Below, one piece after another: positions 24,967 through 32,414 of a stretch of 64,000 bases of DNA. The position numbers and the translations under genes are program-made. Position 1 is the first letter of the stretch; the number at the start of each line of letters is the position of its first letter. The notes under the pieces are model-generated. The model was not told the origin of the DNA, made no database searches, and saw only the letters and a list, made by a program, of their open reading frames with translations. The stretch is from Escherichia coli (lineage in GTDB: Bacteria; Pseudomonadota; Gammaproteobacteria; Enterobacterales; Enterobacteriaceae): NCBI RefSeq assembly GCF_029227855.1, contig NZ_CP074356.1. One strand, 5' to 3'.

Positions 24967-26351
24967 ATGGCACTGCAAAATGAGAAAACTAGTCGTTATC
25001 TTTTGCGCGACTGGAAACCAGAAATCCGGCCTTCTGGGAAAATAAAGGAAAACATATTGCTCGAAGAAACCTCTGGATATCAGTCAGTTGTCTACTTCTT
25101 GCCTTCTGTGTCTGGATGCTATTAGCGCAGTTACTGTTAATCTCAATAAAATCGGTTTTAATTTCACTACCGATCAACTCTTTTTATTAACCGCATTACC
25201 CTCCGTTTCTGGCGCATTATTGCGTGTCCCCTACTCCTTTATGGTGCCTATATTGGTGGACGCCGATGGACGGTTTTTAGTACTGCAATCCTGATTATTC
25301 CTTGCGTCTGGCTCGGAATTGCCGTGCAGAATCCGAATACTCCTTTTGGGATATTTATCGTTATCGCTTTGCTATGCGGTTTTGCAGGTGCGAACTTTGC
25401 TTCGAGCATGGGCAATATCAGTTTCTTCTTCCCAAAAGCCAAACAAGGGAGCGCACTTGGGATTAATGGCGGATTAGGAAACTTAGGTGTAAGTGTGATG
25501 CAGCTGGTTGCACCGCTGGTCATTTTGTACCCGTATTTGCCTTTCTCGGCGTCAATGGCGTACCGCAGGCCGACGGTTCGGTGATGTCGCTGGCGAATGC
25601 CGCATGGATTTGGGTGCCATTACTGGCGATTGCCACGATCGCCGCCTGGTCATGGATGAATGATATCGCCAGTTCACGCGCGTCAATTGCCGACCAGCTG
25701 CCAGTGTTACAACGCCTGCATCTCTGGCTGCTGAGCCTGCTTTACCTTGCCACCTTCGGTTCGTTTATCGGTTTTTCTGCGGGTTTTGCCATGCTGGCGA
25801 AAACTCAGTTCCCTGATGTGAATATTCTGCGCCTGGCGTTCTTTGGCCCATTTATTGGTGCCATCGCGCGGTCGGTTGGTGGTGCTATTTCCGATAAATT
25901 CGGCGGCGTGCGGGTGACGTTGATCAACTTCATTTTTATGGCGATTTTCAGCGCCCTGCTGTTCCTTACCTTACCGGGCACAGGCTCCGGTAATTTCATC
26001 GCATTTTACGCCGTATTTATGGGGTTGTTTCTGACCGCAGGTCTGGGAAGTGGTTCTACTTTCCAGATGATCGCCGTCATCTTTCGCCAGATAACCATTT
26101 ATCGGGTGAAGATGAAAGGCGGTAGTGATGAGCAAGCTCAGAGAGAAGCCGTCACCGAAACGGCGGCGGCTCTGGGCTTTATCTCAGCCATTGGCGCAGT
26201 GGGCGGCTTTTTCATTCCGCAGGCGTTTGGCATGTCGCTCAATATGACCGGCTCTCCGGTAGGCGCGATGAAAGTGTTTTTAATCTTCTACATCGTTTGT
26301 GTGCTGCTGACCTGGCTGGTTTATGGTCGGCGGAAGTTCAGCCAAAAATAA
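24967..26351 (+). pseudogene. narU: Nitrate/nitrite transporter NarU (MFS), at least 3 frame-disrupting 1-nt deletions as assembled
   Basis: The NarK/NarU-like sequence is spread over three frames (24967.., 25088..25294, 25324..25584, 25581..26351); each shift is at a short homopolymer. Confidence 0.75.
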
Positions 26352-26445
26352 AAGATCGATGCCTGACACGTCTTATCAGGCTACAACCGTGTCGCACCCG
26401 ACAAGGCATCAGATCCCAATTCATTCCTGGAGCAGGAGTTATGTC

Positions 26446-30182: not shown

Positions 30183-31723
30183 AAATACGTTCGCAAGTCG
30201 GCATGGTGCTTAATCTCGATAAATGTATCGGCTGCCATACCTGTTCGGTGACCTGTAAAAACGTCTGGACCGGTCGCGAAGGCATGGAGTACGCATGGTT
30301 TAACAACGTCGAAACCAAACCGGGCATTGGTTATCCGAAAAACTGGGAAGATCAGGAAGAGTGGCAAGGCGGCTGGGTGCGTGATGTGAATGGCAAGATC
30401 CGCCCGCGTCTGGGCAGCAAGATGGGCGTAATAACCAAAATCTTCGCCAACCCGGTGGTGCCGCAGATTGATGATTACTACGAACCTTTCACCTTCGACT
30501 ACGAACATTTGCATAGCGCACCAGAAGGCAAACATATCCCTACTGCTCGCCCGCGTTCGCTGATTGACGGTAAGCGGATGGACAAAGTGATCTGGGGGCC
30601 AAACTGGGAAGAACTGCTGGGCGGCGAGTTTGAAAAACGTGCCCGCGACCGCAACTTCGAGGCCATGCAAAAGGAGATGTACGGGCAGTTTGAAAACACC
30701 TTCATGATGTACCTGCCGCGCCTGTGCGAACACTGCCTCAATCCCAGCTGCGTGGCGACCTGTCCAAGCGGCGCTATCTACAAACGCGAAGAAGACGGCA
30801 TTGTGCTGATTGATCAGGATAAATGCCGTGGCTGGCGTTTGTGCATTAGCGGTTGTCCGTACAAAAAAATCTACTTCAACTGGAAAAGCGGCAAGTCAGA
30901 AAAATGTATCTTCTGTTATCCGCGAATTGAGTCAGGCCAACCCACCGTATGCTCAGAAACCTGCGTGGGTCGCATCCGGTATCTGGGCGTGCTGCTTTAC
31001 GACGCCGACCGCATTGAGGAAGCGGCAAGCACCGAGCGCGAAGTTGACCTCTATGAGCGCCAGTGCGAAGTGTTCCTCGATCCACACGATCCCTCAGTGA
31101 TCGAGGAAGCCCTGAAACAAGGTATTCCACAAAATGTGATTGACGCTGCCCAGCGTTCGCCTGTCTACAAAATGGCGATGGACTGGAAACTGGCGTTACC
31201 GCTGCACCCTGAATACCGCACCCTGCCGATGGTCTGGTACGTTCCTCCGCTGTCACCGATTCAGTCCTACGCAGATGCGGGCGGTTTGCCGAAAAGCGAA
31301 GGCGTGCTGCCTGCCATCGAAAGCCTGCGTATTCCGGTGCAATATCTCGCCAATATGTTGAGTGCCGGCGATACCGGTCCGGTACTGCGGGCGCTGAAAC
31401 GGATGATGGCGATGCGCCACTATATGCGTTCACAAACCGTGGAAGGCGTTACTGATACTCGTGCCATCGACGAAGTAGGCCTGAGCGTCGCCCAGGTCGA
31501 AGAAATGTATCGCTATCTCGCCATTGCCAACTATGAAGATCGTTTTGTTATCCCGACCAGCCATCGGGAAATGGCGGGCGATGCCTTCGCAGAACGCAAT
31601 GGCTGCGGTTTTACCTTTGGCGACGGTTGCCACGGTTCGGACAGTAAATTCAACCTGTTCAACAGTAGCCGTATCGATGCCATCAACATCACCGAAGTGC
31701 GCGACAAAGCGGAGGGCGAATAA
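30179..31723 (+). CDS. narY: Respiratory nitrate reductase Z beta subunit
   Basis: 514 aa intact ORF with four Cys clusters for FeS centres; overlaps narZ stop. Confidence 0.9.
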   Translation: MKIRSQVGMVLNLDKCIGCHTCSVTCKNVWTGREGMEYAWFNNVETKPGIGYPKNWEDQEEWQGGWVRDVNGKIRPRLGSKMGVITKIFANPVVPQIDDYYEPFTFDYEHLHSAPEGKHIPTARPRSLIDGKRMDKVIWGPNWEELLGGEFEKRARDRNFEAMQKEMYGQFENTFMMYLPRLCEHCLNPSCVATCPSGAIYKREEDGIVLIDQDKCRGWRLCISGCPYKKIYFNWKSGKSEKCIFCYPRIESGQPTVCSETCVGRIRYLGVLLYDADRIEEAASTEREVDLYERQCEVFLDPHDPSVIEEALKQGIPQNVIDAAQRSPVYKMAMDWKLALPLHPEYRTLPMVWYVPPLSPIQSYADAGGLPKSEGVLPAIESLRIPVQYLANMLSAGDTGPVLRALKRMMAMRHYMRSQTVEGVTDTRAIDEVGLSVAQVEEMYRYLAIANYEDRFVIPTSHREMAGDAFAERNGCGFTFGDGCHGSDSKFNLFNSSRIDAINITEVRDKAEGE

Positions 31724-32414
31724 TGCAGATCCTCAAAGTGATCGGCCTGCTGATGGAGTATCCGGACGAGCTGTTGTGGGAATGTAAGGAGGACGCGCTG
31801 GCGTTGATCCGCCGCGACGCACCGATGCTTACGGATTTTACCCGCAACCTGCTTAACGCGCCGCTGCTGGATAAACAGGCCGAATGGTGCGAAGTGTTTG
31901 ACCGTGGACGTACCACATCGCTGCTGCTGTTCGAACATGTTCATGCCGAGTCCCGCGATCGCGGCCAGGCAATGGTGGACCTGCTGGCGGAGTATGAAAA
32001 GGTCGGCCTGCAGTTGGATTGTCGAGAACTGCCCGATTATCTACCGCTGTATCTGGAGTACTTAAGCGTACTACCGGACGATCAGGCGAAAGAAGGCTTG
32101 CTCAACGTTGCGCCGATCCTCGCCCTGCTTGGCGGACGCTTAAAACAACGCGAGGCACCGTGGTACGCGTTATTTGACACCCTGTTGCAACTGGCAGGAA
32201 GTACACTTTCAAGTGACAGTGTCACAAAACAGGTGAACAGTGAGGAGCGCGATGACACCCGCCAGGCTGGATGCGGTGTGGGAAGAGGAACAGGTGAAGT
32301 TTATTGAAGATAACGCCACGGCGTGTGACAGCTCGCCGCTTAATCAATATCAGCGACGCTTTAGCCAGAATGTCGCGCCGCAGTATGTCGACATCAGTGC
32401 GGGAGGTGGGAAAT
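31723..32414 (+). CDS. narW: Nitrate reductase Z assembly chaperone NarW, apparent frameshift near 32265
   Basis: NarJ-family sequence for about 180 codons, then the ORF terminates early while an alternative frame runs to a TGA overlapping the narV ATG; span is not a multiple of 3. Confidence 0.7.

Follow-up and report, generated by a model that had tools for sequence, protein, structure and literature searches.

Clustered frameshifts in and upstream of narUZYWV in one Escherichia coli assembly are very probably consensus errors

The narU-narZ-narY-narW-narV operon of Escherichia coli, which encodes nitrate reductase Z (NRZ), lies at positions 24,500-33,500 of the 64-kb stretch of contig NZ_CP074356.1 analysed here (the window), and three of its five genes are broken by frameshifts as written in this assembly. 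Comparison with other assemblies indicates that these frameshifts, along with others upstream of the operon, very probably represent base-calling or assembly errors in the consensus of a single tract of about 12 kb rather than mutations of the organism. Private to this assembly, the lesions cluster along the DNA without regard to where genes begin or end, their spectrum is error-like, and their density is far above the background of single-nucleotide polymorphisms (SNPs). An earlier note on this DNA had left the choice between genuine decay of the NRZ system and uncorrected long-read errors to further work, on the ground that the sequence alone could not decide; this needs to be amended in part, as comparison with other assemblies does decide, strongly supporting the second alternative and giving no support to the first.

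Full-length alignment of the operon to more than 5,000 complete E. coli genomes gave 100% coverage at 98.6-99.8% identity, with the query measuring 9,001 nt in the window against 9,013 nt in every reference genome. The nearest genome is that of strain JNEC-KY178 (NZ_AP045174.1; L001) at 99.8%, followed by GMF054 at 99.0%. The annotated neighbourhood is the same in the relatives, comprising fdnGHI, yddG, an ompN-like porin gene, two leucine-rich-repeat (LRR) genes, narUZYWV, yddE, and nhoA, and the gene order between the porin/LRR genes and yddE, together with the high identity, places the locus as narUZYWV of E. coli.

The whole window was aligned to JNEC-KY178, the derived state being judged with two outgroups (L002 and L005), and 12 SNPs and 16 gap openings were found over the 64 kb. 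Fifteen insertion or deletion (indel) events are private to the window and derived in it (12 deletions and three insertions, affecting 17 nt); all are located between 21,140 and 32,266, and the remaining 51.9 kb contains none. At the twelve indel sites from 21140 to 32266 that they resolve, both outgroups agree with JNEC-KY178, the three sites in LRR2 not being resolved by them. Four events fall in narU, three in narZ, and one in narW, and the other seven are shared out among the porin gene, LRR1, LRR2, and the spacer upstream of narU, so that six open reading frames (ORFs) are broken in total (ompN-like porin, LRR1, LRR2, narU, narZ, and narW). Three private SNPs were found in the same tract, at 20167 (T>A, YddG F167Y), 21344 (G>C, porin R179P), and 27502 (C>A, NarZ P353T), all of them derived in the window, transversions, and nonsynonymous. 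The affected patch thus defined runs through the 3' part of yddG, the porin gene, LRR1, LRR2, narU, narZ, narY, and narW (Table 1). Between the lesions the DNA agrees with the relatives at every base bar these three SNPs, each segment is open in the true frame, and adding back the lost bases yields the narUZYWV sequence of the relatives save for the one SNP in narZ.

Much of what the earlier note had reported for the operon was borne out by the alignment: narU is indeed split over three frames (by four 1-nt deletions), the 2+1+1 nt losses in narZ that it had placed near 29095, 29185, and 29735 lie at 29088, 29182, and 29717, the shift in narW near 32265 is a 2-nt deletion at 32266, and narY and narV show neither truncation nor any difference from the relatives. 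Its view that the damage was confined to narU-narZ-narW with the flanking genes intact does not hold, given the seven further indels upstream and the six broken ORFs in place of three, and nor does the argument that the clustering leans towards biology, which loses its force when the cluster is taken in full. The description of every lesion as the contraction of a homopolymer of 2-5 nt is likewise contradicted by the change of GCGC to GC at 29088, the loss of CA from GGCACTGG at 32266, three insertions, and one run of 7 nt, while the related remark that all lesions are deletions is true within the nar genes and untrue for the cluster as a whole.

The comparison with close relatives that had been proposed in the same note is where the case for error is strongest. 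The intact NarU allele of the lineage is encoded on eight public contigs, including a SKESA draft (GCA_017075055.1; L006) and the Logan assemblies of five sequencing runs (L007-L010 and L012). Within a comparison set of JNEC-KY178 and L006-L012, drawn from RefSeq, SKESA, and Logan, every lesion covered is absent, and seven independent assemblies of the lineage lack any lesion that they cover. Two of them, L006 and L008 (the Logan assembly of SRR10254033), agree with the window base for base along 21.4 and 14.6 kb, respectively, save for the 15 indels and three SNPs, with zero differences outside 20167-32266. Hence, as would be expected of an artefact, the differences are private to one assembly whose flanks are identical to those of its clone-mates.

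Wider searches gave a concordant result. With short queries centred on the lesions, the GC deletion in narZ was present in none of 4,155 matching complete E. coli genome records and the CA deletion in narW in none of 667, the best match being 72/74 in each case; a 28-mer over the narZ lesion found no match in metagenome contigs; and exact-product look-up in the gene collection returned no record of the truncated NarZ and NarW products, nor of the YddG and DosP (Q454P) variants of the window. The sole lesion met elsewhere is the shortening of T7 to T6 in the spacer (24930), which is found in one unrelated complete genome, NZ_OZ197100.1 (an environmental isolate from the Netherlands; L020 9001-9083). 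There, the T6 state may be a real slippage polymorphism upstream of narU or may have arisen through a comparable assembly error.

Table 1. Features of the affected tract, in window coordinates.
Feature	Position	Strand	State in this assembly
Anomalous patch	20167..32266		12.1 kb; 15 private indel events and 3 private transversions; 1.5e-3 per bp (~Q28.3)
ompN-like porin gene (PGAP: 'ompC')	20808..21909	+	+1 frameshift at 21140 (+G, GG>GGG); private SNP 21344 G>C, R179P
LRR1, first of two tandem leucine-rich-repeat ORFs	22079..23339	+	+1 at 22754 (A4>A5)
LRR2 (EspR1-like annotation in NZ_OZ197100.1)	23402..24657	+	-1 at 24490 (A4>A3), +1 at 24547 (T1>T2), -1 at 24552 (A3>A2)
Hot core of the patch	24490..25522		9/15 indels in 1,033 nt (P = 0.00035)
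narU upstream non-coding spacer	24921..24930	+	Two 1-nt deletions: CC>C at 24921, T7>T6 at 24930
narU	24967..26351	+	Four 1-nt deletions: 25021 (A4>A3), 25121 (T3>T2), 25252 (T3>T2), 25522 (T5>T4)
narZ	26446..30182	+	-2 at 29088 (GCGC>GC), -1 at 29182 (A3>A2), -1 at 29717 (CC>C); private SNP 27502 C>A, P353T
narY (annotated narH)	30179..31723	+	Intact, identical to relatives
narW	31723..32416	+	2-nt deletion at 32266, CA lost from GGCACTGG; product cut to 194 aa
narV (annotated narI)	32413..33093	+	Intact, identical to relatives; just past last lesion

The distribution of the lesions follows position along the DNA. The probability of all 15 indels falling within the 12.1-kb patch by chance is 1.4e-11 (2.9e-10 by a range test), and the rest of the window offers about four times as many homopolymer runs as the patch, yet no indels. 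Even within the patch the events are uneven, with about one error per 115 nt in the core and sparse tails of 3-7 kb on its two sides, and this core is not accounted for by homopolymer density (P = 1.2e-6). The intact state of narY is unremarkable by simple arithmetic from the patch mean indel rate, which predicts about two events in the gene (P ~0.12 for none). In agreement with an artefact, the errors strike coding and non-coding DNA alike and disregard gene boundaries.

The spectrum is that of deletion-biased changes of 1-2 nt, 13 of the 15 events being a gain or loss of one nucleotide at runs of 1-7 nt, mostly of A or T, with only three SNPs alongside. The hit rate climbs with run length, from 0.16% for 2-nt runs to 1/14 for runs of at least 6 nt, a trend that fits slippage and base-calling error alike and does not discriminate between them. 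Both 2-nt deletions are outside homopolymers and lie 0-7 nt from a Dcm site (CCAGG), the one at 29088 being 7 nt away and the one at 32266 directly adjoining its site; this is a post hoc observation, and a test of proximity to Dam or Dcm sites as a nanopore signature revealed no general excess (P = 0.29 for Dcm; for Dam, 0 events were observed where 1.7 were expected).

The density of the lesions is also far from that expected of natural divergence. About eight private SNPs were counted in the 64 kb, three in the patch and four to five outside it (1791, 3523, 38355, and 41791, with 60809 unresolved), and at the resulting density of ~1.25e-4 per bp, 0.08-0.76 indels would be expected to arise naturally in the patch, where 15 were observed. 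With an indel-to-SNP ratio of 0.5, the upper of these figures, 0.76, gives P = 6e-15, and P stays at or below 6e-15 over the range; the excess of lesions over the SNP background therefore amounts to a factor of about 20 to 200. Transversions make up five of the eight private SNPs, and the four in-gene SNPs with codons examined are without exception nonsynonymous, including that at 1791 (DosP Q454P). This pattern is unusual for natural E. coli variation, and the assembly may also hold scattered substitution errors.

The most likely cause is that the tract from about 20.2 to 32.3 kb rests on a shallow or unpolished long-read consensus of the nanopore type, at its worst from 24.5 to 25.5 kb, the rest of the window having been properly corrected. 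Candidate origins would include a local trough in depth, a long-read bridge, or a chunk skipped by the polisher, the platform and the failed pipeline step both being inferred. A dense core of 1 kb with sparse tails would be expected of either a local read-depth trough or an unpolished segment. Nanopore-only consensus has been reported at about Q27.5-28.3, with errors at homopolymers and Dcm motifs dominating (PMC6591954), and the Q28.3 of the patch is within this range, which supports the reading as consensus error.

The ends of contigs in other assemblies of the lineage bear on the long-read bridge. Its short-read (Logan) contigs repeatedly end at 18825 and 34146, bracketing the patch; the former is just past the selenocysteine UGA and selenocysteine insertion sequence (SECIS) region of fdnG, and the latter follows yddE, at the place where GMF054 has an IS1397 insertion. 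These ends probably hold k-mers repeated elsewhere in the genome (fdoG, and REP/BIME elements). It may be speculated that the two breaks mark a segment of the assembly graph for which a hybrid assembler substituted a long-read bridge; however, an exact match between such a unit and the patch is unlikely because of the clean margins of 1.3 and 1.9 kb that would be left at its ends (~e^-4.8 at the mean rate).

Several observations weigh against the attribution to consensus error and should be given fair consideration. Foremost, the status of the lesions as errors is inferred from comparison with other assemblies, and not observed. No more than one or two Dcm sites are affected out of 30 in the patch, leaving 28-29 correct, and neither Dam nor Dcm sites show an overall excess of events nearby, so that the classic signature of early nanopore data is lacking. 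In addition, 13 of the 14 runs of at least 6 nt are correct, which is somewhat unexpected for a raw long-read consensus; on these grounds the patch is not a raw early-nanopore consensus. No structural cause for the tract, such as a flanking repeat or a paralogue, was found: a search of 18-35.5 kb for repeats of at least 18 nt returned only one 19-nt chance pair and no inverted repeats. Lastly, the four to five private SNPs outside the patch show that the strain does differ from its relatives, and a part of the private changes may be real.

A different route to the same kind of artefact had been put forward in the earlier note, namely that short-read polishing failed because reads multi-map between narU and narK and between narZYWV and narGHJI. 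Failure of polishing in repeats is well documented, and the 9-kb operon query does have a median of two places per genome, which speaks for some paralogous similarity. The 72-82 nt neighbourhoods of three lesion sites, however, have a median of one megablast place per genome, so that no second copy is apparent where it would be needed, and short-read assemblies, which are k-mer-based, cross the entire patch in single contigs spanning 18825-34146. Moreover, narY and narV have paralogues in narGHJI too but are free of errors, the densest errors occur in the AT-rich LRR2 gene, the spacer, and the 5' end of narU, and LRR1 is also hit even though no second copy of at least 18 nt was found for it in 18-35.5 kb. 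Paralogy is accordingly regarded as a highly improbable reason for the failure.

Genuine and recent pseudogenisation of NRZ, in which selection on narUZYWV was lost and frameshifts then accumulated, would account for the breakage of narU, narZ, and narW. As a secondary enzyme of stationary phase that has a paralogue (NRA), NRZ could in principle plausibly be lost. Decay of this kind should nevertheless follow the operon, and seven of the 15 indels are outside it, in unrelated genes and a spacer; it should be inherited, and the seven independent lineage assemblies carry none of the lesions that they cover; and it should be in keeping with the neutral background, which predicts less than one indel. 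Furthermore, narU has received four hits and narZ three, yet the operon shows no private synonymous changes, and the narZ and narW lesions that were tested are absent from all matching complete genomes. A literature search found no title or abstract pointing to decay of narZ into pseudogenes in E. coli. We consider the chance of real decay to be slight in the extreme.

Hardly any more credence can be given to a real but localised mutation shower, whereby one error-prone repair or replication event centred on the 5' region of narU inactivated six genes at once, for example through break-associated synthesis by a low-fidelity polymerase that left small indels over about 12 kb. Such an event would explain why the pattern tracks position and not function, with nine events in a dense 1-kb core and sparse tails of 3-7 kb, and all three co-located SNPs are transversions. 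Against this, no relative carries any subset of the lesions, and a trough in depth ordinarily leaves just this pattern in a long-read consensus. Break-associated mutagenesis in E. coli is not known at rates that come within orders of magnitude of the 1.5 changes per kb seen here, and the signature of Pol IV consists of -1 changes in G/C runs, while the patch is hit mostly in short A/T runs. Either of the two biological scenarios, the decay of NRZ or a mutation shower, would need rates far above anything known.

Three further candidates were rejected. A mismatch-repair mutator is contradicted by the indel-free remainder of the window, 52 kb with four times as many homopolymers as the patch, and by the transversions that make up the patch SNPs; acquisition of the tract by recombination with a lineage whose locus had decayed is incompatible with its holding only three SNPs; and a programmed frameshift or phase-variable contingency locus does not fit many short-run sites, none of them conserved, of which only T7>T6 (24930) recurs, and once.

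Turning to the individual genes of the tract, translation of narU as written meets its first stop at codon 53, all five of its segments being open in the true frame, and that of narZ at codon 896 of 1247. The porin gene is intact in six relatives (L001, L002, L005, L006, L007, and L008). LRR1 ends after 238 aa in the window as compared with 419 aa in relatives, and LRR2 is shortened to 368 aa from 418. These two tandem ORFs of ~419 aa (22079-24657) form an AT-rich island of 33-36% GC between the porin gene and narU. LRR2 is annotated in NZ_OZ197100.1 as the type III secretion system effector EspR1, and LRR1 is annotated by PGAP only as a partial pseudogene, yet has a full open frame in relatives.

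Elsewhere in the window, an IS200C transposase gene (14193-14651) between yddM and fdnI is common to JNEC-KY178 and CFSAN061763 and absent from GMF054 and L013-L019, and thus serves as a lineage marker. Adjoining this insertion is an intact pair of a RelE/ParE-family toxin and a HigA-family antitoxin (yddM) at 13521-14083. On the other side of the operon, the region 39400-54500 is a mosaic of two RHS core genes (~82% identical over 2.1 kb), copies of an ISAs1 transposase gene, and a Vgr gene of the type VI secretion system, and its gene content varies among the relatives examined (L001, L002, and L005). The gap at 44871 (window 44860-44880; 40375-40390 of L001) is within an RHS core gene that PGAP flags as frameshifted, and here the window and both outgroups share CACCCCGCCCC where JNEC-KY178 has CACCCCCCCC. 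Because the window and both outgroups agree, the lesion is JNEC-KY178's own, and that assembly too has a lesion of the homopolymer type.

Taken at face value, the locus would be annotated with six pseudogenes, from which it would be concluded that the strain has lost its second respiratory nitrate reductase along with a porin and two effector-like LRR genes. On the comparative evidence, such a conclusion would in all probability be a false call. No new biology is indicated, and the value of the result is as a warning on the quality of this assembly: at least one tract in it, about 12 kb long, is probably unpolished or of low depth, and its other pseudogenes should be treated with suspicion. 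Artefact and decay can be told apart here by a quick test that needs no reads, which is to make a comparison with clone-mates and ask whether the lesions occur in one assembly only, lie close together, and run across gene boundaries.

The patch may be set beside published errors of long-read and hybrid assemblies. The errors that break up genes in long-read assemblies have been described as biased to deletions, 1-2 nt in size, and located mainly in short A/T runs, with the occasional loss outside a repeat (PMC12007338), and an E. coli hybrid-assembly benchmark found residual errors to be mostly deletions that can form 'concentrated stretches' (bioRxiv 10.1101/2021.11.07.467652). The patch resembles these in its bias to 1-2 nt deletions, its hits on A/T runs of 2-5 nt, a quality of about Q28, and its fragmented genes, and it constitutes a concentrated stretch in an otherwise clean assembly. 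It differs in that the published stretches are in repeats (rRNA operons or prophages), whereas the patch is unique sequence, and in that most of its long homopolymers and Dcm sites are correct. With the reductive decay of host-restricted Enterobacteriaceae such as Shigella and Salmonella Typhi, the window has in common several frameshifts in metabolic genes. True decay of that type, however, is common to clone-mates, includes substitutions and in-frame stops, usually leaves one or a few lesions per gene, and is scattered over the genome, whereas the lesions here are private, nearly free of SNPs, up to four to a gene, and gathered in one 12-kb tract across unrelated genes. Compared finally with the narUZYWV operon of E. 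coli at large, the window has the same gene order, synteny, and high nucleotide identity, and departs from it in the broken frames of narU, narZ, and narW, which are peculiar to this assembly as written.

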